Translations under genes and position numbers: made by a program
Shown here: in pieces, positions 5,182-59,585 of the stretch
Layout of the letters: each line of letters opens with the position of its first letter
How positions within the stretch are numbered: the stretch's first letter is position 1
IMG/VR virus record: IMGVR_UViG_3300010334_000030
Span: 77,055 to 141,054 of that record
Length of the DNA stretch: 64,000 nt
DNA from: a virus
Strand: one strand, 5' to 3'
Notes under the pieces: model-generated
Seen by the model: the letters and a program-made list of their open reading frames with translations, nothing else
Databases searched by the model: none
What the model was told of the DNA's origin: nothing

Positions 5182-5207
5182 TCGATTTTATATATTAAAT
5201 TAGAAAA

Positions 5208-30611: not shown

Positions 30612-31556
30612 TTAATTCTGATTCCTAAAATATATGCTCTCTATCTCCTCGTTAGGTAAAAATGTAGAAAGAGCTTTTCTCATCCTCCTGATGCTATCAT
30701 CAGTTTCAGATCTGTATATAGGATTATCTGAAGATTTATTCTGGTTGTTGGAACGATTGTTTTTTAGGGTTTCTATAAAATAATTAACAAATCCATCCTT
30801 GTGCGTTTTGGTATCGCGTCCTGTGCATCTGTTTATCAGATAATCATAATATGGGTTTTTAGATTTTAATTCGGATAAACCTATGGGTTCCTCTATCCCC
30901 ATGGATGGATCGTCATCAAAATTAAAGGATGTCTTTTTACTTTCACCTTTATTATCTATATGCAAGCAGGGTATTGTAGAATCCTTTGTTTTGTAAATCT
31001 TGAAAGATCCAAATAAATCATGTTTATTTCTTTTCTTTAAATCCACCAAAGATTTATTTTTTAAAACCGCCTCCCATGAATCTCTATCTTTTCTTTTAAT
31101 TGTATCTACATCGTCGGGAATACCAAGTAGGTCCAAAAGAATCTCAATATCACATCTAGTAGATTCTGTTCTTTGTCCGTTCTTAACCGTTAAATAGTTA
31201 GCAAAGCCCTCTATAAAATCATCTATAAGATCTTCCGTGGTATCATGATCCTCTAGATTTTTATATTTGTTAATAGATACCCTTGAGACCTTGCCGTTCT
31301 CACCCTTCTTTGTTTTAATTATACTAAGAGGAATTTCTATCGAATCTAGCTCTTCACCAGCTTTATTAACGTAACTCAATAAAGCAGACCCACCTGTACT
31401 GTTAAACAGTATCGCTCTATTTTTTTTAGAGTCTGGATTGCTGGTGATGTCAGTAACAGAAATAACACAAGAATCATCAGAGTCCTTTACGTGTTTAAAA
31501 CCGTAACTTATTGATTCCTTTAGTTGAAAAAAATCTAAAAATTTTTTAACTGACAT
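30612..31556 (-). CDS. Hypothetical protein with capsid-targeting-like leader
   Basis: N-terminus MSVKKFLDFFQLKES. Confidence 0.6.
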   Translation of the reverse strand: MSVKKFLDFFQLKESISYGFKHVKDSDDSCVISVTDITSNPDSKKNRAILFNSTGGSALLSYVNKAGEELDSIEIPLSIIKTKKGENGKVSRVSINKYKNLEDHDTTEDLIDDFIEGFANYLTVKNGQRTESTRCDIEILLDLLGIPDDVDTIKRKDRDSWEAVLKNKSLVDLKKRNKHDLFGSFKIYKTKDSTIPCLHIDNKGESKKTSFNFDDDPSMGIEEPIGLSELKSKNPYYDYLINRCTGRDTKTHKDGFVNYFIETLKNNRSNNQNKSSDNPIYRSETDDSIRRMRKALSTFLPNEEIESIYFRNQN

Positions 31557-31562
31557 TAGTAA

Positions 31563-32006
31563 TTAATAATTAGTGTCACTCCCGAAATGGATAGTAACAT
31601 CGAATTTTTTAGGATCGGTAGACGCGTTCATATCAATTTCCAATTTAGAAGGATATGTTGGAATTTTATATTCTTTATATTCAACGTGCATTTGTCCAAT
31701 ATCTATAGTTCTTCCAGGTATAAGGTCTATATCAAAATCTTTGGTTGGATTTGGATGATCGTCTACACTAAATTCAAGTTCCACATTTTTTATTGAGAAA
31801 GTAACATCAGAGATTCCTTTTTTTGTGATATCTAAGTTTACTGAATATTCAACAAAAGCCTTAGAGTTTATGATATCCTGATATTCTTTAGGCCTATTGT
31901 GTATATCTATATCAATGTACTCTATCCCGGTGCCGAAACTATATTCACCCCTAGGACCCTCTTTTTTTGCATATGTGAATGCTCCGTAATCGTAAATTCT
32001 AGACAT
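31563..32006 (-). CDS. Hypothetical late protein
   Basis: 147 aa; GATATATA at 32024-32031. Confidence 0.65.
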   Translation of the reverse strand: MSRIYDYGAFTYAKKEGPRGEYSFGTGIEYIDIDIHNRPKEYQDIINSKAFVEYSVNLDITKKGISDVTFSIKNVELEFSVDDHPNPTKDFDIDLIPGRTIDIGQMHVEYKEYKIPTYPSKLEIDMNASTDPKKFDVTIHFGSDTNY

Positions 32007-32087
32007 TAAAAAGACTTTTCTTGTATATATCTTTAAGCTCTTCTAATGAGCGACAAATATATACATTAGATTTAAAAAAGTCCAGAG

Positions 32088-32825
32088 ATGAAAAAAAAGT
32101 TAAGCCCTATATGGTTTTTGAAGGATCCACTGGATCCAGAGCACAAGGAGTATATCCTATTGGACTATTTGAAAGCAATAAGTAAGGATCTAAACCATAG
32201 CAACTGTTTTACCATTACAAAAGAGATCTCAAGGATAATAAAGTCCTTGAATGACTATAAAGAAACTAAAAAATTTAGCAAATCCGTTACTGATCTTTTG
32301 AAAAGAGAGGATAATGAATTTATGGAAGAATTCACAAAAAAGGATTTAAATGATGAAGATTTAAAGAACATAGAATCAATCATAAAGAGCTCTTTGGACA
32401 CCCTTTATGGGTACTCAGGAATCTGTTTAGAGATGATAAAGGAGGAAGAATCTAAAATTAAAATATTCAAGATCCAATCAAAATTTGATCCGCCGATAAG
32501 AAAAGATGACTCTGGTATACTCATAATCAGAAATATGGCAACTGATAAGATCTTAAATTATTTTTTCAGAGCTCAAATAATAATGAAAACAGAGGATGGC
32601 GATAAAGAGGTCTTTATCTTAAAAAAAGCTCCCGTTAGGAACCCATTTTTTTCACTTAATTACGAGTACATATATCACGAGATTCTGAACGAGTTTAGCA
32701 TAAATGGTGAGCATTTCCCACATTTATACGTTATAGAAATATATGAGAATTTTGAGGAGGAATCCGAAATTTATAAATTAGCTAAGGAGAAATTCATAGA
32801 CACACTATCAAAAAAATCCACATAA
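32088..32825 (+). CDS. Hypothetical protein (plus strand)
   Basis: 245-aa ORF with AATATATA at 32056-32063 upstream and a terminator directly downstream. Confidence 0.75.
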   Translation: MKKKLSPIWFLKDPLDPEHKEYILLDYLKAISKDLNHSNCFTITKEISRIIKSLNDYKETKKFSKSVTDLLKREDNEFMEEFTKKDLNDEDLKNIESIIKSSLDTLYGYSGICLEMIKEEESKIKIFKIQSKFDPPIRKDDSGILIIRNMATDKILNYFFRAQIIMKTEDGDKEVFILKKAPVRNPFFSLNYEYIYHEILNEFSINGEHFPHLYVIEIYENFEEESEIYKLAKEKFIDTLSKKST

Positions 32826-32854
32826 AAAAAGGCCTATAAAGGCCTTTTCTTTTT
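32824..32854. terminator. Bidirectional intrinsic terminator
   Basis: AAAAGGCCT-ATAA-AGGCCTTTT with flanking A/T runs between convergent genes. Confidence 0.85.
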
Positions 32855-32869
32855 AATAGCATATCAATA

Positions 32870-33214
32870 TTAAAAATCTTCCAATCTTTTTAAATCCGAT
32901 GAAAATTCTAGGGATTCAGTGGTGTGCATTATGCTGGTGGTACCGAAACTAGTAGCATCTTTAAATATGCCTTGCTCATTTCTATCTATTCTTACACCAG
33001 GCACATTTATGTTTGAGGTGTTTGCAAAAACAGCATTAGCATATCCAACATGATCATATGCAGGCTCTCTTTTAATGGTAGAAAGACCTGATTTCATTAA
33101 CCCACCTTGCGATTGGTTAGAAGGTGCAAGTGGCTTGTATTTATTGTCATGTACCTTGTTCAGAAACTGATCAAAATTTAATATTTCCCTTTGGGCTACG
33201 TTTTGTAAATTCAT
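32870..33214 (-). CDS. Small putative head-internal protein
   Basis: ILNFDQF near the N-terminus and LKRLEDF at the C-terminus, both resembling the capsid-targeting motif. Confidence 0.55.
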   Translation of the reverse strand: MNLQNVAQREILNFDQFLNKVHDNKYKPLAPSNQSQGGLMKSGLSTIKREPAYDHVGYANAVFANTSNINVPGVRIDRNEQGIFKDATSFGTTSIMHTTESLEFSSDLKRLEDF

Positions 33215-33229
33215 ATTAAAAAAATTAAT

Positions 33230-33871
33230 TTATGCTGCAGCTGCTGAATTCCATATTCTTTGTAAAGCCCCCCAAATTCCATCTGAAGAACCTGAATCAC
33301 CTCTTGATGCTCCTGTTGATGGCGATACCTGGCTTGAAGTGTATGATTGTCCCAGTCTTTGGCTAAGAGCATTGGTAAGTTTTTCTTTGTCATTACTGCT
33401 TAAATTTTCAACAGCTTCTTTACCGATATGAGCGCTTCCTAATAGCTCCTCGAATGCTTTAACCATTTTATCCTGTCCTTCCTTACTTAAAAGCATATTT
33501 CTTAGAAAAGTAAAAGCTAAACCAGTTGTCTTAATCCCCATAGAAGCAGCTACGGTATCTATACCTTTTTGTTCTACGAATCTTCTTAAAGAGTCAGCAA
33601 GTTTAGGAGCCCAATAAGTTGAATTTAAATTATCCCCTGAAAGTATTTTTGGGATATCACCCATTGGAATTTCTGTTACGAAGTTCTGAACAAATGAAGA
33701 AAGTAGGGATCCTTCCATAAGACCCAATTTCTCTAAAAGAGCAGCAGTTATTTTTGTCCTGATTGTGTCTTTGAATCCAGTTCCCATTACAGAAAACAGA
33801 TTTGAGAAAAATCCACCGAAGTTGAAGTCCTCATTTATCTGAAATTCTTTTAATTTTTTAATGTTTGACAT
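33230..33871 (-). CDS. Putative head-internal/ejection protein
   Basis: Leader MSNIKKLKEFQINE followed by amphipathic DFNFGGFFSNLFS; GATATATA at 33890-33897. Confidence 0.6.
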   Translation of the reverse strand: MSNIKKLKEFQINEDFNFGGFFSNLFSVMGTGFKDTIRTKITAALLEKLGLMEGSLLSSFVQNFVTEIPMGDIPKILSGDNLNSTYWAPKLADSLRRFVEQKGIDTVAASMGIKTTGLAFTFLRNMLLSKEGQDKMVKAFEELLGSAHIGKEAVENLSSNDKEKLTNALSQRLGQSYTSSQVSPSTGASRGDSGSSDGIWGALQRIWNSAAAA

Positions 33872-33918
33872 TGAAAAAAATTTTTCTTATATATATCTAA
33901 ACAGGTTTAGGATTCCTC

Positions 33919-35328
33919 TTATTTAATAGATTCTATAAAGAGATTAACCGCTTTTTGTCTATATTTAATTCTATCCTCTTTTATTTCAGGGTTTTTAAGT
34001 GCCTCTTTTTTCCTGTTTAATATAGATTCGGGTAAAAGTGGACCAAATGTGTCCTTAAGTATTTTTTTATCTGTCCTCCATTCTATAGGTAAATGCAAGG
34101 CAAATCTAACTATTTCTAGATTCAGGAATGGATTTCTTAACTCCAGGGTATGTGCCATAGACATTTTATCAAGTCTAGGCAAGTGGTAATAGGTAAGCTC
34201 TTCAAAAATGTCAGACTGCTGGGAGTCGTATTCGTGGATTCTTGAATATCCGCCAAAGAGCTCATCAGAGCCGTCCCCGCTAATAACTATCCGATATCCT
34301 GTTTCCTTCTTAACTGCTTCAAATAAATGGTATTGCGGTATAACAGATCCTAGATCTATAGGTCCTTCGTTCCAATCACAATAAATATCTGCCAGTTTGC
34401 TAGAATCCATATTGTAGTCTAAAAAGTTAATCGGGGTCTCTAAATGCTCACTAAGTGCTTTAACATACTGGGATTCCCCATTTTCTATAGAAAACCAGGT
34501 TACCTTGGATTCAAGCTGTTTAAGAATTGCTGCTATGATCGAAGAATCTAGACCCCCAGAAACTAACACCGATATTGGATAGTTCTTAGACACCAGACGG
34601 AACTTTACGCTCTCTATCATTTTATCCCAAAGCCATTCCATATGAGCCTCGTAATCAGCTCCTATTAAGCTTTTAATTGGGGTTTCCCAAGCTCTATAAT
34701 ACTTAGGGAAAATGTGGTTAAAAAGTGGAGACGCTATATTGTAGGAATAAATGTTATTTGGTAAAAGTCTTTTAATGTTTAGATAAGGTGTTCTTTCATC
34801 CTTATTATATCCCCATTTCCTAACCGAACTAATATAGGATTGGTCAAGATCACTTTGACCTGTAAATAGACCTTTTATCTCTGAGCAAATCTCACCAAGC
34901 TCATTTTTATAAAGGCACTTCTTACCAAGAGGATCGGTAAAGGCGATAATATCACCAGTTTTAGAATTGTAGATAATTATAGCCCAAAATCCATCCCAAG
35001 TTTGAATATGAGGAATATACATAGCACTAAAGAACTCCACGCTTCCACCTCTATAACTAGAGAATAAATTACAAAGATACTCAGTATCGGATGAAAATTT
35101 AGTTTGATCATAATTAAAGATCTCACCATTAAACATCAAATATATTCCATCTGATATTTCTAGAGGCTGTGCCCATTCATCACCATCTAATGTCTGGATG
35201 GGAAGTCTATGGTGGCATAGGGTAACACCATCAAGATCAACCATTGATTTTTCTATTCCTCTATGTTCTATAGAATCTAAGAGTTCGGGCATTTCGCTGG
35301 CCCTAGTAGTTAGCAGTATTCCGCACAT
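33919..35328 (-). CDS. asnB: Asparagine synthetase B-like glutamine amidotransferase
   Basis: N-terminal MCGI (Ntn Cys), HRG, FNGEIFN, SGGLDSS PP-loop, GDGSDELFGGY, E.R.PFL. Confidence 0.92.
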   Translation of the reverse strand: MCGILLTTRASEMPELLDSIEHRGIEKSMVDLDGVTLCHHRLPIQTLDGDEWAQPLEISDGIYLMFNGEIFNYDQTKFSSDTEYLCNLFSSYRGGSVEFFSAMYIPHIQTWDGFWAIIIYNSKTGDIIAFTDPLGKKCLYKNELGEICSEIKGLFTGQSDLDQSYISSVRKWGYNKDERTPYLNIKRLLPNNIYSYNIASPLFNHIFPKYYRAWETPIKSLIGADYEAHMEWLWDKMIESVKFRLVSKNYPISVLVSGGLDSSIIAAILKQLESKVTWFSIENGESQYVKALSEHLETPINFLDYNMDSSKLADIYCDWNEGPIDLGSVIPQYHLFEAVKKETGYRIVISGDGSDELFGGYSRIHEYDSQQSDIFEELTYYHLPRLDKMSMAHTLELRNPFLNLEIVRFALHLPIEWRTDKKILKDTFGPLLPESILNRKKEALKNPEIKEDRIKYRQKAVNLFIESIK

Positions 35329-35330
35329 AA

Positions 35331-35891
35331 TTAAATGGTAAATTCTGATTCAAAAAATGATTTAAGTTCTGATACAGTTTTAGTATCGAAAGTATTTTTA
35401 AAGATCTTTAAGTTTCCAATACCTATTTCGTTAAATTTAGAAATAACAAACTCGAAAGCTTTCCTTTCTGCTGATGATTTATCGGCATAGTCCCATTGAT
35501 CTTTATTTCTATCGGATTTATTTGGATTGTCCCCATCTATATAAAGGACGGTAATTCCTGACATTAAACCTGAATTTTTAATATAAAGAATTTGTTTAGC
35601 TGCATCAGACTTTGATATTCTATTCTCAGAAATTCCCCAGGCTAAAACAGTTAGGATTCCGCGGTCGTGTATGAAGTCGGGTAGATTTATATCCTTAGCC
35701 ATTTGCATAAGCATGAGTTCTTTACCCATTGAAAACGAATGTGCCTCTCTGTTGTCCTTACTGGAAAGCCCTAAGAGATTAAAATAGCTGCCAAAATCAA
35801 ACTGGAATCTTGGGATCCCAACAAGCTTAGAGATCTCAGTAGAGAGATAGGTTTTACCAGAATTTCGAGAACCTTCAAAAACATAGATCAT
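35331..35891 (-). CDS. P-loop nucleotide monophosphate kinase (thymidylate-kinase-like)
   Basis: VFEGSRNSGKT Walker A, IHDR motif. Confidence 0.75.
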   Translation of the reverse strand: MIYVFEGSRNSGKTYLSTEISKLVGIPRFQFDFGSYFNLLGLSSKDNREAHSFSMGKELMLMQMAKDINLPDFIHDRGILTVLAWGISENRISKSDAAKQILYIKNSGLMSGITVLYIDGDNPNKSDRNKDQWDYADKSSAERKAFEFVISKFNEIGIGNLKIFKNTFDTKTVSELKSFFESEFTI

Positions 35892-35914
35892 TGGTCTTTA
35901 TTTTTTATATTCTA

Positions 35915-35922
35915 CAAATGTA
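35915..35922 (-). promoter_or_regulatory. Bacteroidota-type -7 promoter element TACATTTG
   Basis: Matches TAnnTTTG, about 24 nt upstream of the kinase start. Confidence 0.45.
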
Positions 35923-35940
35923 ATAAAATTCCACGGACAT

Positions 35941-35969
35941 AAAAAAAACCAGGATTATTCCTGGTTTTT
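35941..35969 (-). terminator. Intrinsic terminator
   Basis: AAAAACCAGGA-TTAT-TCCTGGTTTTT hairpin with A/T tails. Confidence 0.85.
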
Positions 35970-35989
35970 GTATTTTGAATATTTTTAAA

Positions 35990-36895
35990 TTAACCTAATG
36001 TTTCTGTCGTTCCCTCAATATCACCAACTTTTTCTAGTTCGTCTGCACTTGTAGTAGAAGTTTGATATGTTGCAGCCAAAGTACCAGCTATCTGCTGATT
36101 GTCTGGGCTTTCTAGAGCTTCCGCACCTCTTTTTAAAAGATCGTCCTTTACCTTCTTTGCACCCTGTTTTGCAAGATCTAATGCTTGTTTAAAAGCTTTT
36201 GATTTATTTGCTAAAGTATTTATTTTCTTAACAGATTTTAGGTTATTGAAAGCAGATTTAACTTTCTTTAGCTTGGATGTTACCTTAGCTACGTTTTTAA
36301 GAGCTTTTACTCCTTTTACTGCTTTTTGAACACCATTTAATGCTTTCAAAGCTTTAGATCCTTTACTAACGAAGCTAATGATTTTTTGAGCATACATTAA
36401 ACCTGCAGGAACGCCACAAGCAGTTAATGCAACAGAAGCAACCATCATTATAATAGGCATGGCTTTTTTAATTACCTTGACTGCTTTTTGTGCAAACTTT
36501 TTAAGACCCGCACCTAGTTTTTTCCAAAATTTTTCATTAAGTGCTAAATATCCATTAAGCTCTTCCTCACTTAAATTCTCAACAGAATCTATACCTAGAT
36601 CTTCAGCAAGATAATTTAAGAAATCCCTTTCACTGAAATCATCAAAGTGCTCCTTTAAAAATTCAGAAAGAGACATATCTTCAGGGATATCAAAATCCTC
36701 GTTCAAGTCATTCATATCAAATCCAAGCTTCTCTGCAACTAAATCTAAGTAACCCTTACCCTCTGTAAGAACCATCTCATCAATTGCACGAAGCTGTTCA
36801 ACGGTTAGGTTGTCAAGATCAAAACTCTTACATGACTCAAAAAGGGGTGATTTGTTAGATCCTTGAGAACTGCTAAATGGCAATATATTTTTCAT
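35990..36895 (-). CDS. Putative ejection protein: acidic prodomain plus cationic/hydrophobic C-terminal region (paralog 1)
   Basis: About 120 aa of D/E-rich sequence, then LNE-KFWKKLGAGLKKFAQKAVKVIKK and a hydrophobic helix. Confidence 0.6.
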   Translation of the reverse strand: MKNILPFSSSQGSNKSPLFESCKSFDLDNLTVEQLRAIDEMVLTEGKGYLDLVAEKLGFDMNDLNEDFDIPEDMSLSEFLKEHFDDFSERDFLNYLAEDLGIDSVENLSEEELNGYLALNEKFWKKLGAGLKKFAQKAVKVIKKAMPIIMMVASVALTACGVPAGLMYAQKIISFVSKGSKALKALNGVQKAVKGVKALKNVAKVTSKLKKVKSAFNNLKSVKKINTLANKSKAFKQALDLAKQGAKKVKDDLLKRGAEALESPDNQQIAGTLAATYQTSTTSADELEKVGDIEGTTETLG

Positions 36896-36930
36896 AAGTC
36901 TTTATGTTTGTTATATTCTATATTGGATAA

Positions 36931-37647
36931 TTATCCGTCATTTTCGTCGTCTTCTGGCTCAAGGTCTGCTGCATTCTCTGGTACTGTTGAAGGAGGAATC
37001 TGTTTCTTTACAGATTTAGCGGTTTCAACCGCAGCGGTAAAAGCAGGAGCTATGTTTTTAATTGTTTGCATATTATCAGCACTGAAAAGCGCTTTTGCTC
37101 CATTCTTCTTTACATCATTAAAAACTTTACCTAAACTTGCCTGAACTACATCAGCAGTCTTTCCCATTTCTGGGTTTGAATCCGATTTAGAAATCAATTT
37201 TGTTATATTAGGATATTTAGCAGCTAGTTTTCCAAGTCCACCCTGGAATTTACCAAGAAAAGCTTTAAGTTTTGGACTAGCATCAGCGGGAATCACTTTT
37301 GATATAATAGGACCAGCTATACTTTTCACCTTAGCTACTACTTCTTTTGCTTTATTAAAAGCTTTTTTCAACCAACCTTTCTCGTTAATATTGTACTCAT
37401 CAGATTCGTCTAACATTTCAAAATCAAATTCATAGTCATCAGATATACCCTCTCTCATACAGATAAGGTCAAATGTACAAATTCCGTGATTTTCTGCCAA
37501 TCTATCAAGATCTGCCAATTCCTGCTCGTTTAGGGAATTGAAGTCTAAATGACTAACGCTTTCTAAAAGCTCGGATTCATCTATTTTATAATATCCTGAG
37601 ATTTCTTTTTCTGAACCGTAGTTCTCAAATGCAACGATGTTTTTCAT
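36931..37647 (-). CDS. Putative ejection protein (paralog 2)
   Basis: Acidic prodomain, then INE-KGWLKKAFNKAKEVVAKVKSIAGP. Confidence 0.6.
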   Translation of the reverse strand: MKNIVAFENYGSEKEISGYYKIDESELLESVSHLDFNSLNEQELADLDRLAENHGICTFDLICMREGISDDYEFDFEMLDESDEYNINEKGWLKKAFNKAKEVVAKVKSIAGPIISKVIPADASPKLKAFLGKFQGGLGKLAAKYPNITKLISKSDSNPEMGKTADVVQASLGKVFNDVKKNGAKALFSADNMQTIKNIAPAFTAAVETAKSVKKQIPPSTVPENAADLEPEDDENDG

Positions 37648-37669
37648 TTTTCTATTTTTATTTTTTTAT

Positions 37670-38398
37670 TTAGGCTGTCGGAATGTCACTAGATGACCAT
37701 GGCTTTGGATCAGTTACGGCCTTAGGTACATTATTCTTTTCACCGTTCTTATTTCCTGTTTCTTTTATATTAAAAACCACCTCTTTTATAGCGGTTTGAA
37801 TGATACCTATGCCCATACTAGAGCGTTTGTTGTCTTCGCTAAAAAGAGAACTTTGTGCTCTAGATTCATTATCTTTTAAAACCTTACCGTAAGTATTCAC
37901 CAAAACATTAACGACATATTTATGCTCCGGAGTTTTATTTGCAATATCGTAAAGTTCTTCCGAAGATTTAGGTCCTTTTGCAAGGGCTTTCTTTAAACCT
38001 TTTATGTACATATCAACAACTTTATTTATTGTTTGTAATGTCTTTGGTGGCATCGGTTCTTTTTTCTTGTCACCATCTATACTTAGACCATCTATTGCTT
38101 TTTTTACATCAGGCTTGATTTTGTTAATTTGTTCATTAACTGTTTTTACTAGCCAACCTGGTGCTGATGATTCATATATTTCATAATCAGAAGAAAAGTT
38201 TTCCGGCTCGTTCATACAAACAACATCAAGTGTGCAAAGATCTGAGGATTCAACCAACATATCTAATTGGTAGAAATCATCCTCGTTTATTTTTTCATAC
38301 CCTCCATTAGACTCGTTTAAATTAAAAGACTTCTTTAGTATTTTCTGCACAGTATTAAAAACTGCATAGTTGTTAAAGGAAAAAAGATTACTGTTCAT
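37670..38398 (-). CDS. Putative ejection protein (paralog 3)
   Basis: Shares LD.L.E...CT.D..CM.E with paralog 2; GATATATA at 38416-38423. Confidence 0.55.
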   Translation of the reverse strand: MNSNLFSFNNYAVFNTVQKILKKSFNLNESNGGYEKINEDDFYQLDMLVESSDLCTLDVVCMNEPENFSSDYEIYESSAPGWLVKTVNEQINKIKPDVKKAIDGLSIDGDKKKEPMPPKTLQTINKVVDMYIKGLKKALAKGPKSSEELYDIANKTPEHKYVVNVLVNTYGKVLKDNESRAQSSLFSEDNKRSSMGIGIIQTAIKEVVFNIKETGNKNGEKNNVPKAVTDPKPWSSSDIPTA

Positions 38399-38425
38399 AG
38401 TTTAATTTATATTTGTATATATCAT

Positions 38426-40897: not shown

Positions 40898-40908
40898 ATC
40901 TTAGTTTT

Positions 40909-41181
40909 TTAATATCTAGGAGTAGTTCCAGGAGTTCCTCCCGGCGTGGTGTTTTTTAATTTTAATGCATCTGTAAGGGATTTCATTAAATTCGGAATCT
41001 TTGCATATAATTCAGACTGTTTAGTTAAACTAGTGATCTCACTATTAACATCACCAGCTTTTTTCAGTTTTTTAGCATCACTTATAGCATCAAAAGTTTC
41101 AGAAATTTGTGTTCTGATTCTTTCAATTTTAGTGTGCGTGCTATCAGCTTCGTTTACTACAAATTGGTCAAAGTTAAGCAT
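40909..41181 (-). CDS. Small putative head-internal protein
   Basis: Leader MLNFDQFVVNE closely resembles the T4 CTS. Confidence 0.6.
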   Translation of the reverse strand: MLNFDQFVVNEADSTHTKIERIRTQISETFDAISDAKKLKKAGDVNSEITSLTKQSELYAKIPNLMKSLTDALKLKNTTPGGTPGTTPRY

Positions 41182-43227: not shown

Positions 43228-43318
43228 ATTACTACACGAGTCTAATTTTACTTAGTATATATCCTTTTCAGTTTCGGTATCTTAATGTTAAAGAGGAAAA
43301 TGTAAGCATGGGGCAAAT

Positions 43319-43348
43319 AAAAAACCCTAAGGCAACTTAGGGTTTTTT
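43319..43348 (-). terminator. Intrinsic terminator after the major capsid gene
   Basis: AAAAAACCCTAAG-GCAA-CTTAGGGTTTTTT. Confidence 0.9.
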
Positions 43349-43366
43349 GTATGTTTAGTTTAATGA

Positions 43367-45145: not shown

Positions 45146-45169
45146 GATTTGTGTTTATTATTTTTGTTT

Positions 45170-47164
45170 TTATCTGTTTGTAAACTTTTTCTCTAAAGCA
45201 GAAGCTATGTAACTCATATAATCTGATGAGTAAGCTTGAGCTGCTTGAGATTGGTTGTTTGAAACCTCTTCGCTTTCTTGAAGCTTCTGAAGACCTACTG
45301 GGCTAGTTCCAAGTTGACGTGTTGACCAGAAATTTTTGATCTGGTATGGGGTATCTAATCTATAGAAGTTAGACTGAGCAACAATTGATTGCTTGTGTCC
45401 TTCTGATAGTGATTCCCAAACCTGAGCATACTCTTCAGGCATTTCATCAATAAATTTGAAACCTGTTTCATGTAAGTTCTCCTCTGATTCATTAAGCATT
45501 TGTTCTGCCTTTTGTTTGTTGGCGTTTTTAGCTAATCTATTAGCTGCTTCGTTTATATTCTCCTCAGTTTTTTTGGTTTGAACTGATTCAATTAGAGAGT
45601 CGATTTTTGATGAGATATCATCGTAGCTTCCTGCAAATCCAGATTCGTTAAGATCTGATTCAACTGTAAATTCTACGCTTTCTCTTAAGTTAGTTTGGTT
45701 GCTGTAAGGATTTCCCTTCTGTACTGATTCTGCAATATACTCACTGTAAGAAATTGATCTACTAAGTTTTTCTGCTAAGTACTCAGAATAATCTATGCCC
45801 TTATTTAGATTTTCTGCTAAATAGTCAGTATATTCAATACCTCTGTTTAGATTTTCTGCAACATACTCAGTATATTCAATGCCGTCATTTAATTTTTCGG
45901 CTAGGTACTCAGTATAAGCAACACCTTTATTTAGATTTTCTCCAAGATACTCAGAATAAGAAATGTTATTATCAACATTCTCAGCTAAGTACTCAGAATA
46001 TTGGATGTTTTGATCCAACTTCTCAGCTAAATACTTAGAGTACTCGATATTATTATCTACGCTTTCTGCAACATATTCTGTGTAAGAGATTGACTTATCA
46101 ACGTTCTCAGCTAAATACTTAGAATATGAAATTGACTTGTCAACGTTCTCAGCTAGGTATCTAGAATATGAAATTGACTTATCCAAATTCTCAGCTAAAT
46201 ATTTGCTATAAGTGATGCTATTGTCAAGATTCTCTGACAAATATTCGCCATACTTAATAGCGTTTTCTAAATTTTCAGCTAGGTAATCTGAATATTTTTC
46301 AAGTTTAGCAACTCTTTCTTCCAATTCGTAAGAATCGTTAGTGGGTTGTTTTTGTTCTTTTAAGTCTGCAATGACTGACTTCATAGAATCCATTTCTTTT
46401 TTCAAGAAAACTGAATACTTATTTAGCTCGTCTGCGGTAACAAATTCATTGTTCTCCATAAGGGCTTTCTTATTTTTATTATCCGTTTTGTTTATGATAT
46501 TGTAAAATTCCTCATTATCAACTTTATATATCTTTAATGAAGATTCATTTTCTAGACCTAGAGATTCATTTATACACTCAAGATCATTAGTTATGCTATT
46601 AGACTGGAAACTCTTAAATTCCTCTGAGCTAAACCCTGCGCTCTCGTACACTCTATCAAGCTGTGCATTTTGAAATCCAGGATCAGCAACTAGGTCATAT
46701 GTGAAAATCTTTTTAATTTGAACCTTTTTGTCGTTACCAACTGAACCTGCTGCTCTAGACGATATAGATAAAGGAATACCTGCATCCACAATTTTTTTTG
46801 CTACTTCTCCTGCTGGGGTATCTAAAAGTTTAACTTTAATTCTTAAAGTTTTGTCACCCTTATTATGAATTAAATCTGTAACAAGGTGAGAAATATTTTT
46901 AAGAGAAACATCAAATTTTTCAGGATGATCCAATTCACCAACTAATCTTTTTTGATCTATCTTCTCTTTTAAATACTCAAGATGGGGAAGATACTCTTTT
47001 TCCTCGTATATTCTGTGGTTGTTGTTTTCTTTACCAAAAACCGCTGCAATACCCTCTAAAAGATATTCATTATCAGAAGACTTCTTTGACTCGAGAACAA
47101 AATCCTGCTTATCCAGGATAAACACCATTTGCTCAGTTAATAAATTATCTTTCAATCTCGGCAT
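45170..47164 (-). CDS. Prohead protease (gp21-like) fused to a scaffold/core domain
   Basis: N.N.RIY, GELDHP, NISH, LLDTPAG, ISSRAAGSV, TYDLVADPGF; C-terminal 14-aa repeats; GATATATA at 47191-47198. Confidence 0.92.
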   Translation of the reverse strand: MPRLKDNLLTEQMVFILDKQDFVLESKKSSDNEYLLEGIAAVFGKENNNHRIYEEKEYLPHLEYLKEKIDQKRLVGELDHPEKFDVSLKNISHLVTDLIHNKGDKTLRIKVKLLDTPAGEVAKKIVDAGIPLSISSRAAGSVGNDKKVQIKKIFTYDLVADPGFQNAQLDRVYESAGFSSEEFKSFQSNSITNDLECINESLGLENESSLKIYKVDNEEFYNIINKTDNKNKKALMENNEFVTADELNKYSVFLKKEMDSMKSVIADLKEQKQPTNDSYELEERVAKLEKYSDYLAENLENAIKYGEYLSENLDNSITYSKYLAENLDKSISYSRYLAENVDKSISYSKYLAENVDKSISYTEYVAESVDNNIEYSKYLAEKLDQNIQYSEYLAENVDNNISYSEYLGENLNKGVAYTEYLAEKLNDGIEYTEYVAENLNRGIEYTDYLAENLNKGIDYSEYLAEKLSRSISYSEYIAESVQKGNPYSNQTNLRESVEFTVESDLNESGFAGSYDDISSKIDSLIESVQTKKTEENINEAANRLAKNANKQKAEQMLNESEENLHETGFKFIDEMPEEYAQVWESLSEGHKQSIVAQSNFYRLDTPYQIKNFWSTRQLGTSPVGLQKLQESEEVSNNQSQAAQAYSSDYMSYIASALEKKFTNR
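45728..46295 (-). repeat. 14 x 42-bp (14-aa) coding repeat, consensus YSEYLAENLDKSIS
   Basis: 14 Y-x-x-Y-[LVI]-[ASG]-E units counted in the translation. Confidence 0.95.
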
Positions 47165-47225
47165 ATTATTAAGAATTTTTCTCTATTTATTATATATCAA
47201 TCGTTGATTTGATTTTTCTGATATT

Positions 47226-49916
47226 TTACCCAATTTTTATTCTATCTTTAACTTCTTCTATGAATTTTTTGGCTATTTTGAAAGATTCACCGTCCTTTGA
47301 TTTAAATCTCACCTTTTTATCCAAAAAATCAGCATAACCATTTCTGAGTTTAACCTCTACAACATTTCCTGCGCTATCATATATCTCCTTGGCAGAAGTT
47401 ATATATTTCCAATTGGATATACCTAAAATGTTCTTTTCCTGATTAGTTAAAAATCTATCGATAATACTAACCCCATTTGGAACAGGGTTGTCAACTATAG
47501 TGGTGTCATCCTTTGTTGTCTTGATAGAAATGTCCCTTATGTTGGCCTTTACTGGCTCCCCTACATAATCTGGTGCTTTCTTCGGATTCTCCACTTTAGT
47601 AATATCTTTGGTAGTATCTTTAGTAATATCTTTGGTAATATCTTTGGTAGTATCTTTGGTAGGATCAACAGATTTTTCTTCAGGTCCCTTATCAGAATTT
47701 TGGTCTTGCTTGTTTGAATCATCTTCCTGTCTATATTCATAGATACCAACTCTACAGTCATCAAGACGCTCGTCAGTGTTTATCGAGATCTCCACTTCAC
47801 TTCCGTCACGAAGTCTATATGATTCACCGCCTATAAAAAAATGTTCAAATAATCCTAGTCCGTACCCCTTCTTTCCTCTTAGATCTGGATTTGCATACTC
47901 CTTGTTTGTTATATTGTAAACTGCAACAATAGCAGGACTACTTTTTTGTTCGGGTGTTAGCTCTATAACATCACCAGAATCTTCATTCTCATTTTCTAGG
48001 ATCCCCTTGACTTTATCATGGAAATCGTTAAACTTCAATATTCCTTTACCTTCAAAAACCTGATTTATTTTTTCAGTGTAAAGGCTTTCATTTTTCATGT
48101 CTCCCCCGCCAACTTCAGCTATACCAAATACCACTTTAAGTTGCTCCTGTGTTAATTTAGAAAGCGTATCTGAACTAACTTTTTTACCTGTCACGTTCAT
48201 GACATTGCCATCCAGATCCTTAAAATTAAAAGAGAATTCTTCTGGTGCATCAGGATCCGCTTTAAGTATCATATCCTCGGCAGAAGAGTAAGCTGACATA
48301 AGCTCCTGCCATCCACAATATCCATAGAAAAGAGAAGGGGATTGTGCTCCTGATATAATTCCATCAAAAAAAGCTCCCTGAGGTTTAAGATCATCGTTAT
48401 CGAAAAAACCATGCTTAACATTGGTTGATTTAGGGAATGCCAGGAGGAGTGCATCATGTTGAGCTAGCTGTTTTGTCCAGGATTCAGAGTGGATTTGTGT
48501 TACTATAAAAAGAGATCCGTCGCTACCCTCCTTTATTTTTACCATCTCCATCGTGGTTCTTTTCTCTGTGTTTAAAAACACATCAAGTAAAATCTTCCAT
48601 CCACTAGCTGTACCTTGGCTGTAACAAATAGTTATTGGATTACCTATATCAATTTGACTTGGGATGAAAGTGTTATGCATCCCAGGGGTAGACTTAACCT
48701 CATTGTATCTTGGGGCTTGATTGTTCGCCAGCCAGACCCAAGTTGATGCAATAACATCAAGACCTAATAGGACCTCACCAATTCCGCAAGCCATACTTGC
48801 TCCCCCTGCTGATACCAAACCTACAGTTTTCTCAACACCCCCAACAACCTCTGATGCTGAAAGAGCATATCTTGCAGCACGAGCACTTTCAGATCCTACC
48901 TTAAAAGCCCATTTAGCTCCTGTAAAGAAATTTTTAAGTTTTTCAACTCTAGAGACCTGACCTATATATTTACCCCACTCAACAGCTCCCCTCCCGCTAC
49001 TTATAGCTTCTCTTGTATTTTTTAGAAGTGCAATATCCCTAGCACCTCCCCAGAGACTTTTAACCTTGCTTGAGAATTTACCCGCTTTAGCAACTTTCTC
49101 TGCATCCTTCGCTACCTCGGCGGCATTCTTTGTTGTTTTAACTATATCAGCAACATTGTCAAGCTTTTGGACTACTGGCTTAATTAATCTTTTCATCCTC
49201 CAACGATAAAATATACCCTGAGCTACAAACGCAGCACCAGGTAGAACGAATCCTTTTACTGCCCCAAATATTAACAGGCTGATCGCTCCCCACGCAGCAA
49301 CCGTTGCTGCATTCTCCACAATTTTTTTGTATATTGACTCTGCAGTATCGTTTTCTGAAACTGGGCCACCTGGAAGTGTTTCGGTAACATCTACAAGAGA
49401 AAGATTTGAGCCTGAGATATTTTTAGGACTCATTCTATATGCGGTAAGAGCCTCGTCTAGGATTTCACCTTTCTCATTTTTAAGAACTGCAAAAACTGCA
49501 ATATCCTGTCCTGAAGATGAAAAGTTCAGGGTGTCTCTAATTCTTCCCTTTGACAATAAACTGTTATAAGCGTAATGTAATTTAGTTGCAGTTTTAATGG
49601 TATTGTCGTCAGCCGGTTGGACTTCACCCTCTTCAAATATTCTATTAGATTTAGAATACTCTGAAAAACTTAGTGTTTTTCTATCGGATGGGTTATTTGA
49701 TTCTAAGAGCTCTTCATAATCTGATAAATCCAAAGACTCCGCTTTCCAATCTCTTGGATTTTTAGCTAACCATTTTTGAAAATCGTCAGAATAACACCAC
49801 CATTGAAAATCTGAAAAGTTCATCTTTTCGGCACCTTCTATTTGAGTTGGTACAACAACTAGGGGTAAAGGATTTCCCTTTTCGTAATTCGCTTTTGAAG
49901 AATATATTGCTAGCAT
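47226..49916 (-). CDS. Large putative ejection/membrane protein
   Basis: Hydrophobic segments (AAWGAISLLIFGAV; GIGEVLLGLDVIASTWVWL) flank a basic amphipathic region; internal CTS-like motifs; GATATATA at 49983-49990. Confidence 0.55.
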   Translation of the reverse strand: MLAIYSSKANYEKGNPLPLVVVPTQIEGAEKMNFSDFQWWCYSDDFQKWLAKNPRDWKAESLDLSDYEELLESNNPSDRKTLSFSEYSKSNRIFEEGEVQPADDNTIKTATKLHYAYNSLLSKGRIRDTLNFSSSGQDIAVFAVLKNEKGEILDEALTAYRMSPKNISGSNLSLVDVTETLPGGPVSENDTAESIYKKIVENAATVAAWGAISLLIFGAVKGFVLPGAAFVAQGIFYRWRMKRLIKPVVQKLDNVADIVKTTKNAAEVAKDAEKVAKAGKFSSKVKSLWGGARDIALLKNTREAISSGRGAVEWGKYIGQVSRVEKLKNFFTGAKWAFKVGSESARAARYALSASEVVGGVEKTVGLVSAGGASMACGIGEVLLGLDVIASTWVWLANNQAPRYNEVKSTPGMHNTFIPSQIDIGNPITICYSQGTASGWKILLDVFLNTEKRTTMEMVKIKEGSDGSLFIVTQIHSESWTKQLAQHDALLLAFPKSTNVKHGFFDNDDLKPQGAFFDGIISGAQSPSLFYGYCGWQELMSAYSSAEDMILKADPDAPEEFSFNFKDLDGNVMNVTGKKVSSDTLSKLTQEQLKVVFGIAEVGGGDMKNESLYTEKINQVFEGKGILKFNDFHDKVKGILENENEDSGDVIELTPEQKSSPAIVAVYNITNKEYANPDLRGKKGYGLGLFEHFFIGGESYRLRDGSEVEISINTDERLDDCRVGIYEYRQEDDSNKQDQNSDKGPEEKSVDPTKDTTKDITKDITKDTTKDITKVENPKKAPDYVGEPVKANIRDISIKTTKDDTTIVDNPVPNGVSIIDRFLTNQEKNILGISNWKYITSAKEIYDSAGNVVEVKLRNGYADFLDKKVRFKSKDGESFKIAKKFIEEVKDRIKIG
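47595..47660 (-). repeat. 12-bp coding minisatellite (TKDT/TKDI, about 5.5 units)
   Basis: A[AG]TATCTTT[GA]GT units on the plus strand. Confidence 0.9.
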
Positions 49917-49925
49917 TTAAAAAAA

Positions 49926-50723
49926 CTATTTTTCTGAGTAAATTTTATTATAAGCCTCTGAGATCGTATCTATAATCTTTTCTATATATCCTTCATTTCT
50001 AAGCTTCTTAAAGGACAAATTTCCTATAGAGAACTCCCCGTCTTTTCTTAGAGATTCCTTTCTCATTTTTTGAATCTTCTCTTTGAGCTTTATTGCTCTT
50101 TTATAAAGTTTCTTAGCATCCGAAGGTAAAGTGCTCACAGTTAATTTTGTGTGGATCTGATCAATCTCATAAGCTATAGATTCAGTCTTTTTATTAACAT
50201 CCGCTTCATCAACTTCTGGCGGGTCAAAAACTGGGGTCTTTATCCATTCATTATTTAGAAGAGAAAAAAGACCAGAAGAATCGTGGATTAGACTTGAATC
50301 CTGAACGTACATCTCCACATCATATCCACGGATCTTTATATTGTGTCTAAGGTTCCAAATGAATCTAATTCCGTCAACAGCAGCTTTAACTATTTTTGGG
50401 TTATCCTCGTCTATGTCTTCTAAATTTACAATTACATGAACATCTAAGTCGGATAGTGGGGTATAGTTATAATTTGAGATAGATCCAGTTAACTGGATAT
50501 CTATTATATCCTTCTGCTTTAGTATGTCCTCGAATTTTTCAAAGAAATCGTTTGATATTCTAAGGAGCTTTCTTCTTACCCTCTGATCCATCTGCCAAGT
50601 AACCTTCCCTGACTTATCGGTCTTCTTAGTCCAAAATGTTGGATTTAGCTCATCATTATAGAAAGGACCTATTTTAGCCTCATTGACTTTATGATATTGA
50701 TCGTATTGTAAAATTTGGGGCAA
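49926..50723 (-). CDS. Pol-beta-family nucleotidyltransferase; probable start is TTG at 50723 rather than 50750
   Basis: LTGSISNYNY...SDLDVH motif; the GATATATA motif at 50741-50748 overlaps the tracked start codon. Confidence 0.8.
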   Translation of the reverse strand: MPQILQYDQYHKVNEAKIGPFYNDELNPTFWTKKTDKSGKVTWQMDQRVRRKLLRISNDFFEKFEDILKQKDIIDIQLTGSISNYNYTPLSDLDVHVIVNLEDIDEDNPKIVKAAVDGIRFIWNLRHNIKIRGYDVEMYVQDSSLIHDSSGLFSLLNNEWIKTPVFDPPEVDEADVNKKTESIAYEIDQIHTKLTVSTLPSDAKKLYKRAIKLKEKIQKMRKESLRKDGEFSIGNLSFKKLRNEGYIEKIIDTISEAYNKIYSEK

Positions 50724-50726
50724 TAA

Positions 50727-50763
50727 AAAAGACTTTCCTTTATATATCAAAAGAAAGTCTTTT
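50727..50763 (-). terminator. 11-bp inverted repeat (terminator-like) with GATATATA in its loop
   Basis: AAAAGACTTTC-ctttatatatcaaaa-GAAAGTCTTTT. Confidence 0.6.
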
Positions 50764-50794
50764 AAGTTTATATTCTAGAGGTAAACCCCTTTAA

Positions 50795-51499
50795 TTAAAC
50801 TAGGGCTAACATAATTTTCATAACCGTATCAACGTCAGATTGACAGTATTCCTTTATTGACTCATAATCCTTCTTGTTCCAATAATAATCTCTAACCTGT
50901 GATCCGTCAAGATTTTCTTTCGGAGAGGATATCCCCAATGAGCACGACAAAAGATCTAGGCTAAGGTATTTTTGCTGAACCCAGCTACCAAAAGCAAAAA
51001 TATCAGAGGTGTCAATAAAAGGCATTTCCCATGGCTTCTTATCCCAAATTTTTATATTTGAGGGTAAATCAATTCTATTATAAATCAGTCTTTTACCGAT
51101 ACAGGGGATATCAAATCCTTTTATGTTGTGCCCACACAGCTTCCAACTCTTCAAGGAAGCATTGCTTAAAACCTTAGCTGATTTAGCTAATATGTCTTTT
51201 TCATCCTCACCATAGAAAGAAACGAATCTTTTTTCCCCGCCATTTGCTGTATCAAAGGAGCCAAAAGAAACACAAACTATTTTTGAAAATTCTGGTTCTA
51301 ATCCAGCTTTATTATTGTAAACTTCTTCTAGTGTTGAATTTTTTAATTCATCATGTGCGCTCCTGTAATAAGAATCCCTTTTTAACCATAGCTTATACAG
51401 TCTTTCGTTTTCTCTCTCAAGTTCTTCTAGAGATCCATAAGAAGGAACAGTTTCAACATCAATATAAAGTAACTTTTCAATGAAATCCTGGCTGAACAT
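50795..51499 (-). CDS. DEDDy 3'-5' exonuclease (PolB exonuclease-like)
   Basis: IDVET, GHNIKGFDIP, YCQSDV. Confidence 0.9.
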   Translation of the reverse strand: MFSQDFIEKLLYIDVETVPSYGSLEELERENERLYKLWLKRDSYYRSAHDELKNSTLEEVYNNKAGLEPEFSKIVCVSFGSFDTANGGEKRFVSFYGEDEKDILAKSAKVLSNASLKSWKLCGHNIKGFDIPCIGKRLIYNRIDLPSNIKIWDKKPWEMPFIDTSDIFAFGSWVQQKYLSLDLLSCSLGISSPKENLDGSQVRDYYWNKKDYESIKEYCQSDVDTVMKIMLALV

Positions 51500-51522
51500 A
51501 AATTTGGGGTTTAAATTAAAAA

Positions 51523-52425
51523 TTATTTTTGATTTATTTTATTAATAACTACAGGTGGCAATGATTTATAATCCATTCTATACTTAAGACAAACATCTTC
51601 CTTTATGTCTGAGACTATCACAATATCAATATCAAGACCAAAGGTTGGGATTCTCTTTGATAAAAGATCAGAAGGTTTACTTGTTAGGGATAATCCAGAT
51701 TTATCCGTTTCAGAAGATTCAGAATAAAAGATTAATGGCTTCCTTTCAAGATTCCACGTAGAGCAAGAAAGAAAAAGAGCCTCTCTTATTGACAGTCCGC
51801 CGTCGTTAAACTGATGAGGGAGAATTCTAAAACATATAGGGACGCCACATTTATAATAAACCCCCGATAAAAGATCAGTCGTGGAAAATAAACTGGGTTT
51901 ATCGTCATTCATAACGGATATTTTAGAAACTACATCTTTATCTAAAAGGGATATTCTTTTACAGAATTCATCCATTGTATTTTTTCTATTCCCGTATGCT
52001 GACCCAATCCTCAACATTATTGATGGGTAATTTACCCCAATAATATCAAGTACGTTTGAAATGGAATTTACCATCTTAATTGAATTCCGATAAGCTTCAT
52101 CAAGTTGGCTTCCTAAAAAATAATCCTTGCCCACATAGAAGCAAATTCTTAAATTATTTTTTGAGATTATTCTATTAGCCTCGTCTATAATTTTAGATAT
52201 TATTGGAGACTCCTCCTCTATCGCATCATTAAAAAAATTAGGGAGAAATGTGAATTCTGATACATCAAGGCAAATAACCTTAATATCTAAAGAAAGATTG
52301 TAGCTACAAACACTTATTATCGTTGTGATTAAATCTGAATAAGATTCTATATTAATCTTCTTATTGCCAAATTCACTTGGCAATCCTAGATATGAAATCT
52401 CCGGTGATGTTTTACCAAATAACAT
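51523..52425 (-). CDS. uvsE: UV-damage endonuclease (UvsE/UVDE)-like protein, apparently catalytically degenerate
   Basis: IG.AYG..K, NDDKPS.FS, HQFN.GG, STW, YSES layout matches UvsE; most metal ligands substituted. Confidence 0.7.
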   Translation of the reverse strand: MLFGKTSPEISYLGLPSEFGNKKINIESYSDLITTIISVCSYNLSLDIKVICLDVSEFTFLPNFFNDAIEEESPIISKIIDEANRIISKNNLRICFYVGKDYFLGSQLDEAYRNSIKMVNSISNVLDIIGVNYPSIMLRIGSAYGNRKNTMDEFCKRISLLDKDVVSKISVMNDDKPSLFSTTDLLSGVYYKCGVPICFRILPHQFNDGGLSIREALFLSCSTWNLERKPLIFYSESSETDKSGLSLTSKPSDLLSKRIPTFGLDIDIVIVSDIKEDVCLKYRMDYKSLPPVVINKINQK

Positions 52426-52468
52426 TATCCTTTTTAATTCTTAGCAAAAAGGATATAATTAGTTCCAA

Positions 52469-52951
52469 TTATCCCCCGGTAGTCTCTAAGCCAAGTTCTG
52501 ATGCGTTGTAAACAGTTTTAGAATTGTAAGCTTTATCTGGGATTTGGTTAAACTTAACCTTAGATTTACTCTCAATATTACCGTGATCACCACCCTCTGC
52601 AAATTGAATTGCATCAGATTTGACCTCTATAACTCTCTCGGTTTTCTTTCCCTTATTGTAAACCTGTACGAAATATCTGTATTCTTTACCGTCAGTATTT
52701 CTAAAGGATCTAACTATAACACCAATCACTTTCTTTTTAGATTCTAATGGCTGTGCAATAACAACATCACCTATTTGAAATTCTGCTCCTTTAACTGTTG
52801 TTTCTATATCTGGATCTTGCCCAACAGAAACAGAGAGATCGCTGAAGGGCTTATAGTTTATTTTAAGTATGCCATTAGCACCACCGTATCCATAAGTGTC
52901 TCCAAAAACACCCGCGTCAAAATACTCGTTAATTGTTTTAATATGTTTCAT
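52469..52951 (-). CDS. Hypothetical protein with CTS-like leader and SH3/KOW-like domain
   Basis: MKHIKTINEYF; FQIGDVV...G.IV. Confidence 0.55.
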   Translation of the reverse strand: MKHIKTINEYFDAGVFGDTYGYGGANGILKINYKPFSDLSVSVGQDPDIETTVKGAEFQIGDVVIAQPLESKKKVIGVIVRSFRNTDGKEYRYFVQVYNKGKKTERVIEVKSDAIQFAEGGDHGNIESKSKVKFNQIPDKAYNSKTVYNASELGLETTGG

Positions 52952-59576: not shown

Positions 59577-59585
59577 TTTTTATTT

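Follow-up and report, generated by a model that had tools for sequence, protein, structure and literature searches.

The window analysed here comprises 64,000 nucleotides, bases 77055-141054 and hence the last 64 kb of the 141,054-bp contig IMGVR_UViG_3300010334_000030 (GC 0.36). Many proteins encoded in it, which are otherwise unrelated, start with a common short leader. We consider it likely that this leader is a capsid targeting sequence of the bacteriophage T4 type that is cut by a prohead protease of the gp21 family. A sequence-only reading of this DNA had proposed such a motif and, on its basis, a set of membrane-active, wall-binding and enzymatic proteins that are loaded into the head and delivered at infection. 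The type of capsid targeting is already known from T4; what stands out here is the number of predicted carriers and the kinds of cargo. A predicted counterpart was found here for every defining feature of the T4 system that can be tested on sequences.

The contig has no terminal repeat, so that the genome is probably incomplete, and it belongs to an uncultured T4-like giant phage from freshwater; freshwater metagenomes contain DNA of this phage. The closest deposited relatives of its capsid protein are those of uncultured huge phages and Prevotella Lak phages (42-46% identity), followed by those of Tenacibaculum, Flavobacterium and Chryseobacterium phages. Judging from these relatives, the host is probably a member of Bacteroidota. 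At least 80 closer relatives were found in IMG/VR (capsid identity 67-84%, contigs up to 434 kb). A megablast search of the region gave no match. The minus strand carries nearly all genes of the window, including all leader, protease, scaffold, capsid, portal and sigma factor genes given below. No Shine-Dalgarno sequences were seen upstream of the genes in the window.

Definition and enrichment of the leader

The leader consists of a hydrophobic residue, an aromatic pair three residues apart and a closing [LIV]-x-E followed by S, A, G or D, and it is 11-19 residues long. A strict pattern ([ILVFM]-x-x-[FYWL]-x-[EDNQSG]-[FYW], 0-20 residues, [LIVFY]-x-E-[SAGD]), which had to start within the first seven residues, matched 12 of the 133 N-termini of the open reading frames (ORFs) of the whole contig. 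At internal positions the same pattern occurred 9 times in 42,887, which corresponds to 0.2 expected N-terminal matches. Shuffling of residues 2-40 (2000 shuffles) gave 0.33 +/- 0.56 matches with a maximum of 3, and the AT-rich composition of the N-termini therefore does not explain the motif. In the loci of the 80 relatives, 102 N-terminal matches were found, compared with 3.1 expected. Since the strict pattern was drawn up after the data had been seen, a second test was added: a profile was trained solely on the relatives' orthologues of four families and then scored on the present genome. It detected 7 further unrelated proteins with 9.7-14.6 bits (only ≤0.05% of 3793 internal windows scored higher), although a doubtful 114-aa protein counts among them. 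Altogether, at least 14 firm and about 21 possible carriers were found among the 133 ORFs of this partial genome. When the mature parts of 20 candidate carriers were compared with one another by BLAST, similarity was seen only within one trio of paralogues (35990/36931/37670), and the earlier statement that the motif is common to otherwise unrelated proteins thus holds.

Orthologues with 25-80% identity retain the aromatic pair and the closing Glu (conserved at 0.8-0.9 in the alignments), while the residues in between and the length of the spacer vary, as can be seen from the orthologous leaders MSLLKFKDWSALNE, MLLKFKEWESHNINE and MVYNFRQWDKFTSLNE. The 65 orthologues of the 303-aa protein, for example, retain F..W and N-E despite spacers of unequal length. 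The layout was derived from 95 non-redundant leaders. The first position of the aromatic pair (F, L or Y) lies at residues 4-8 and the second (F, W or Y) at i+3. The third residue from the cut, P3, is L in 56, I in 25 and V in 10 leaders, i.e. L/I/V in 91; P2 is mostly N, and the length to the Glu is mostly 11-19 residues. P1 = E and P1' = S/A/G/D in these 95 leaders follow from the definition of the pattern. Leaders of different genes in the present genome have only about 51% of nucleotides in common and use synonymous codons freely, which points to selection on the peptide and not on a DNA cassette. Spread of the leader as a DNA cassette is thus not supported.

Leaders produced by chance or composition, or by wrongly assigned start codons, would be conceivable because the ORF calls were mechanical and one of the leaders hinges on a TTG start. 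Such an artefact is, however, highly improbable. Two controls gave an enrichment of 40- to 60-fold, orthologues of 25-80% identity have kept the leader, and the start in question is backed by about 45 orthologues and by a promoter word at the usual spacing.

Counterparts of the T4 targeting system

In T4, the first 10 residues of the internal protein IPIII suffice for its incorporation; residues 4 and 7 of the targeting sequence are mainly responsible for targeting, and residues 8 and 10 for processing (PMC9026906). In the T4 sequence MKTYQEFIAE these residues are Y, F, I and E, and the present leaders show exactly that layout. When the profile trained on the present clade was run on the N-termini of 258 ORFs of T4 (AF158101), the internal proteins IPI (MKTFKEFTSTTTPVSTITE/A; slashes mark predicted cuts), IPIII and IPII ranked 1st, 4th and 8th, respectively. 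According to our calculation, the chance of finding all three among the top eight is about 2 in 100,000. The leader of IPI, MKTFKEF...ITE/A, has 19 residues, so that in T4, too, the aromatic pair and the cut site can be separated by a spacer. The parallel with T4 drawn in the sequence-only reading is borne out by these results and by the gp21-family protease and gp23-family capsid protein described below.

The same search placed T4 gp61.1 (AF158101, 18966-19130, minus strand), which starts with MKTFKEFIKED, 2nd among the 258 ORFs. This hypothetical protein may carry a T4 targeting sequence that has so far been overlooked.

The candidate prohead protease (S77, gp21-type) corresponds to residues 1-175 (46640-47164) of a 664-aa protein (gene 45170-47164). 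It matched PF03420 Peptidase_S77 with 30.1 bits (cut-off 27) and phrog_207 with 2.5e-37, and PF20034 (S80) was likewise above the cut-off. Its sole match in the PDB was T4 gp21 (5JBL), with E 0.28 for the single sequence and 0.0082 with a 22-sequence profile. His80 within ELDHP and Ser135/136 within ISSRAAG are invariant in the orthologues. Words of the form hydrophobic-x-E (h-x-E) are also conserved across the protease orthologues (LTE10, VLE25/S, VYE174/S and INE200/S): VYE174/S is invariant, and N-E-S of INE200/S is invariant or nearly so. The protease domain is thus flanked by conserved words, LNE and VLE/S on its N-terminal side and VYE174/S and NE200/S on its C-terminal side. T4 gp21 carries a comparable word, LIE-9, and cleaves itself at the C-terminus (PMC9026906).

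The protease is followed in the same protein by a scaffold-like part (45725-46312) with 14 tandem 14-residue repeats x-Y-L-A-E-N-L-D-K-S-I-S-Y-S, each of which contains an h-x-E word (Y-L-A-E); TRF reported a period of 42 nt across 45768-46201. About 50 orthologues keep the exact 14-aa period with 12-14 copies (10 in one orthologue). The array may be a scaffold or a ruler of fixed length with its own cut sites. The density of h-x-E words in the protease-scaffold fusion is 6.8-8.5 per 100 residues (6.8 compared with 2.4 +/- 1.4 in the proteome, and 8.5 compared with 2.2), whereas the mature parts of the leader proteins have an average density and only the fusion stands out. This contrast fits a scaffold that would be chopped up and cargo that would be cut once.

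The major capsid protein (592 aa; 43367-45145) belongs to the gp23 family (PF07068 Gp23, 1.6e-38; phrog_138). Its predicted propeptide, residues 1-43 (45017-45145), contains PLIE18/S, TDE26/S and LNE43/S, and there is no Glu between LNE43 and the gp23 core. In an alignment with full-length T4 gp23, the first 20 residues align with the gp23 propeptide, including W-x-PL[LI]E. No convincing paralogue of the capsid protein was found on the contig. A 156-aa ORF outside the window (genome 28002-28472) showed a weak phmmer match to it (E 6e-6, 18 bits) and may be a capsid-like fragment or a low-complexity match.

The cut-site word is consequently common to the leaders, the capsid propeptide, both ends of the protease domain and the 14 scaffold repeats. 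By analogy with T4, the leader would be a removable N-terminal propeptide of 11-19 residues whose aromatic pair (i, i+3) docks the carrier onto the prohead core. After closure of the shell, the closing [LIV]-x-E would be cut by the gp21-family protease, so that the carriers would be encapsidated and cleaved after the Glu. The nucleotidyltransferase, the adenylate kinase, the fragments of the 896-aa protein and the small proteins described below would then travel in the head and leave it with the DNA at infection.

The N-terminal word could serve another purpose, for instance as a docking peptide for a phage or host hub, as a degron or another signal for regulated proteolysis, or as a feature of translation start. 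The adenylate kinase carrier encoded in a nucleotide-metabolism neighbourhood would suit such a role, as would the lack of Shine-Dalgarno sequences and the abundance of AT-rich codons in the N-termini. We regard this explanation as quite unlikely. Composition-keeping shuffles yielded 0.33 matches against the 12 observed, and the codons vary while the residues are kept. The motif closes in the cut-site word which also marks the capsid propeptide and the scaffold, the profile picks out the proven targeting sequences of T4, and the motif is missing from late tail genes. Nor do the leaders look like secretion signals, being polar or acidic with only 2-3 hydrophobic positions and no Cys. Sec, Tat and lipoprotein signal peptides were ruled out, as there is neither a hydrophobic core of ≥10 residues nor a lipobox Cys.

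Several observations weigh against a capsid targeting function. Besides the post hoc origin of the strict pattern, several of the listed examples have weak profile scores. P1' varies, being S/A/G/D here, R in the relatives' adenylate kinases and N in the scaffold repeats, and the cleavage rule is therefore loose. The 303-aa and 823-aa proteins had no homologue in deposited phage genomes by tblastn. The exact leader was not found around the capsid genes of the more distant relatives LR756500 and Lak-B5. Finally, the adenylate kinase gene adjoins that of ribonucleotide reductase, has no late-promoter word and resembles a gene for a metabolic enzyme; this context is the main observation that fits the model poorly.

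Carrier proteins and their probable fate

The N-termini quoted in the sequence-only reading were found at the respective minus-strand starts: MLNFDQFVVNE at 41181, MSLLKFKDWSALNE at 42085, MSNIKKLKEFQINE at 33871, MSVKKFLDFFQLKE at 31556, and those at 43227, 37647, 36895 and 52951. Three of the leader genes lie directly downstream of the capsid gene and are present in essentially all relatives. The 380-aa protein (42085-43227) starts with MKNIPSFNEF..LLE (MKNIPSFNEFKKYDSLLE/S) and has a second conserved site, VNE42/G. Its gene is preceded by the word GATATATA at 43256-43263, and it has 63 orthologues. Beyond the leader it is helical and K/E-rich, and it is likely to be a prohead-core protein. 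Its identification as a gp24-like vertex protein was rejected, considering the absence of a family match, the helical K/E-rich consensus and the lack of a convincing capsid paralogue on the contig. The 303-aa protein (41174-42085) has the leader MSLLKFKDWSALNE/S. Two exact contigs from one lake RNA library cover 41290-41582 within its gene; this is weak evidence as carry-over of DNA is possible, and such contigs cannot reveal the level, ends or timing of transcription. Most of the matches in lake RNA libraries were to capsid transcripts of related phages. The third protein (40909-41181) has 90 residues, is basic (isoelectric point of the mature part 9.5) and starts with MLNFDQFVVNE/A.

All three are helical and K/E-rich or basic, and they look more like prohead-core or inner-head proteins than injected effectors. 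In a more restricted form of the proposed mechanism, the leader would be only a tag for assembly and processing of the prohead core, most of the carriers being scaffold or core proteins which are degraded or kept for assembly and not delivered into the host. The conservation of these three genes behind the capsid gene in all relatives and the helical, K/E-rich nature of their products speak for it, and in T4 the core proteins gp67, gp68 and gp22 are likewise substrates of gp21 (PMC5694885). As an account of most carriers it nevertheless seems unlikely to us. A raised density of cut sites is confined to the protease-scaffold fusion (6.8 per 100 aa vs 2.4 +/- 1.4), whereas the average density in the mature leader proteins suggests a single N-terminal cut and an intact product. 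Moreover, enzymes such as the nucleotidyltransferase and the adenylate kinase are ill suited as scaffolds; the same would apply to the 823-aa protein with its peptidoglycan-binding-like domain, should it be a carrier.

A pol-beta-type nucleotidyltransferase (PF01909 NTP_transf_2; 49926-50723) starts with the leader MPQILQYDQYHKVNE/A from a TTG codon (50721-50723, minus strand). This start, proposed already in the sequence-only reading, is borne out: the codon lies 25 nt after GATATATA, and about 45 orthologues have a GTG start with the same kind of leader (e.g. at 4395 in locus L074 and 4382 in locus L078), which shows that the TTG start was called correctly. A conserved U-rich 5' leader precedes the start. 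In the AlphaFold2 (AF2) model the predicted local distance difference test score (pLDDT) is 83; the leader (about 50) forms a short helix, which is followed by a low-confidence linker holding the cut site. The fold matches were weak but all of the pol-beta type (ANT/AadA, CD-NTases, FAM46), and the claim of enzymatic cargo holds for this protein. Foldseek searches with its model and with the whole model of the 823-aa protein gave no match at E ≤ 0.001. The other enzyme with a leader is an adenylate kinase (PF00406, 1.3e-38), encoded outside the window (genome 16882-17496). Its leader is kept in 10 relatives, and as the Pfam domain begins at residue 24, the leader is an add-on. Further carriers outside the window are encoded at genome positions 4831-6036, 14410-14943, 44638-45177, 47268-48197 and 48187-48756. 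In family searches of the leader proteins against PHROGs and Pfam, only the nucleotidyltransferase, the adenylate kinase and a sub-threshold PG_binding_1 match emerged.

The 896-aa protein (47226-49916) contains hydrophobic stretches; such stretches are the only sign of the suggested membrane-active cargo. The internal copies of the leader reported earlier for this protein are present and conserved: SFSEY...IFE95/E (49632-49670) and ILKFNDF...ILE641/N (47994-48041) were found in 50 orthologues, with the aromatics conserved at 0.9 and the Glu at 0.8-0.9. This suggests a candidate polyprotein in which each piece would have its own label. Around residues 770-785 (47560-47610, minus strand) the protein also has a K-D-[IT]-T tandem repeat (TKDTTKDITKDITKDTTKDITK), the length of which differs among the orthologues.

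The 823-aa protein (38426-40897) has no aromatic-pair leader but a conserved N-terminal word NPVA...LFENE/K; it may belong with the head cargo, although it carries only the cut-site word. Its AF2 model (pLDDT 80) shows long helices, and a stretch at about residues 314-400 (39698-39958) resembles a peptidoglycan-binding domain. Residues 314-450 of the model gave five VIA matches to peptidoglycan-binding domains at 18-26% identity: 4xxt (Z 7.5), 4lpq (7.4), phiKZ gp144 3bkh (7.4), 5nm7 (7.0) and 6tci (7.0). They agree with a Pfam match to PG_binding_1 (15.9 bits, E 0.015) below the cut-off of 23, and a match in the Atlas serves as a lead only. Wall binding, as proposed for part of the cargo, is possible for this protein and has moderate support.

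Weaker carriers, in order of falling strength, are three tandem paralogues, a 213-aa protein and a 314-aa protein. The paralogues, of 301, 238 and 242 aa (35990-38398; BLAST E 1.5e-15 and 0.002), start with MKNILPF..LFE/S, MKNIVAFENY..IDE/S and MNSNLFSFNNY..LNE/S, respectively. Each has several more h-x-E sites within its first 120 residues, and GATATATA was found at 38416-38423. In the 213-aa protein (33230-33871) the leader MSNIKKLKEFQINE/D is followed by a Gly/Phe-rich stretch, and GATATATA is located at 33890-33897. The 314-aa protein (30612-31556; MSVKKFLDFFQLKE/S) matches the strict pattern but has a low profile score (3.6); it is weak by profile (3.6-5.4 bits) together with the products of 35990-36895 and 36931-37647. 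Two other examples of the sequence-only reading fared less well. ILNFDQF, ascribed to the N-terminus at 33214, is not an N-terminal leader: in this 114-aa protein (32870-33214; profile score 11.3) it sits at residues 11-17, as part of REILNFDQF conserved at residues 9-17, and no h-x-E cleavage word follows. The sequence MKHIKTINEYF is indeed present at the start of the 160-aa protein (52469-52951), but this is a weak member with only a short possible leader and a possible I-N-E/Y site (MKHIKTINE/YF).

An asparagine-synthase-like amidotransferase (PF00733, 8.4e-41) and a P-loop protein are encoded amid the leader genes (33919-35891, minus strand). Their position is conserved in the relatives, and they have no leader.

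Late promoter, other systems and clade specificity

Of the 39 copies of the word [GA]ATATATA (GATATATA) in the genome, 26 precede a start codon of the same strand by 12-75 nt (p 1.6e-30). On the minus strand it was found at 50741-50748 (nucleotidyltransferase), 47191-47198 (protease), 49983-49990 (896-aa gene) and 61339-61346 (portal), and it was also seen ahead of genes for fibre and baseplate proteins. The word may serve as the late promoter for a gp55-like sigma factor of late genes, which is encoded at 62410-62769 (phrog_234, 1.2e-16). Near this gene are a head-completion gene (61918-62403) and two tandem gp20-like portal genes without a leader (57948-61280; phrog_213, 4.9e-64 and 4.3e-60). 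GATATATA precedes 9 of the 21 leader genes compared with 17 of the 112 other genes (Fisher p 0.0066). The leader genes, called late in the sequence-only reading, are not all clearly so: the adenylate kinase gene, beside that of ribonucleotide reductase, has no such word. The leader was absent from all tail, fibre, baseplate and portal proteins whose genes carry GATATATA, and it is thus not a general feature of late genes. A check of the N-termini throughout the genome, of the kind that the sequence-only reading had put forward, found the leader enriched, with these structural proteins lacking it.

The present system and that of T4 have in common a short N-terminal propeptide on otherwise unrelated proteins, an aromatic pair three residues apart (Y4/F7 or F4/F7 in T4), a closing [LI]-x-E beside a small residue, and a gp21-family protease, a core scaffold and a gp23-family shell. 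They differ in the number of carriers: among the T4 proteins tested, a comparable leader was found only in the three internal proteins and gp61.1, whereas there are at least 14 firm carriers here. Two enzymes, an adenylate kinase and a pol-beta nucleotidyltransferase, are among the present carriers, as is a large protein in which the tag recurs internally. The present leaders usually have 11-19 residues and that of T4 10, the present host is probably a freshwater member of Bacteroidota, and the present system is known from sequence alone.

In the phages phiKZ, 201phi2-1 and SPN3US, a gp21-related protease (gp175, gp245; Pfam S80) similarly cuts many head proteins after Glu, the large cargo includes enzymes and the propeptides have redundant cut sites (PMC5694885; PMC9026906). 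The present protease also passes the Pfam S80 cut-off. However, most propeptides of the phiKZ-type phages exceed 100 residues, their P3 is small (S/A/G-x-E or A-x-E) and a shared short leader has not been described (PMC5694885). The present leaders, in contrast, are shared, have 11-19 residues and carry L/I/V at P3 as in T4. Processing of the kind known for the inner-body and ejection proteins of phiKZ-type phages was rejected for these reasons.

Tenacibaculum phage PTm1 encodes a 'prohead core scaffolding protein and protease' (BBI90692.1) in which the protease is likewise fused to a scaffold-like C-terminal part. The fusion gene is located just upstream of a gp23-like capsid gene, and the capsid propeptide ends with I-N-E/S. 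PTm1 differs in having no array of 14 x 14-residue repeats, and the capsid identity is only 36%. The neighbouring N-termini resemble the leader only loosely (MKKLYDHISENLVTE), and the exact leader was not found in the capsid neighbourhood.

A more distant analogy is offered by the cargo-loading peptides of encapsulins, short labels which send diverse enzymes into a shell of the HK97 fold. Those labels are mostly C-terminal, bind to the shell itself and are not removed, and neither a protease nor a scaffold is involved.

The contents of the capsid are probably readable from the sequence. Provided that the tag acts as it does in T4, a single short profile would list those head-borne proteins of an uncultured giant phage that reach the host first; otherwise, such lists can be had only from phages in culture, by proteomics of their virions. 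The grammar of T4 targeting, an aromatic pair plus h-x-E, would then be ancient and portable. The first-strike cargo would be unusual in comprising a nucleotidyltransferase and an adenylate kinase, and perhaps also a protein that binds to the wall. Natural leader variants would also become available for the T4 protein-packaging technology. Tentatively, and with somewhat more doubt than confidence, we propose a broader reading, in which the tag is a readable address label for a very large packaged proteome. The 141 kb of the contig, out of a genome of probably more than 300 kb, might encode at least 20 such proteins. An adenylate kinase and at least one pol-beta nucleotidyltransferase would be among this cargo, and a peptidoglycan-binding protein might be. 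The internal labels of the 896-aa polyprotein might load and release several fragments, and coliphage T4 and the giant freshwater phages, whose hosts are probably Bacteroidota, might have retained the same grammar of the label. In that case, sequences alone would suffice to predict the arsenal of proteins that uncultured giant phages inject.

Considering the capsid neighbourhoods of LR756500, Lak-B5 and PTm1, which lack it, the exact leader appears to be specific to the present clade and yet common to T4. In Prevotella phage Lak-B5, the proteins encoded at 8464-9702 (plus strand) and 34933-35997 (minus strand) share a different N-terminus, MNKLIKKL[VM]E[SG]LFDD, which holds an h-x-E followed by S or G. 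This may be a head-targeting leader of the Lak clade's own.

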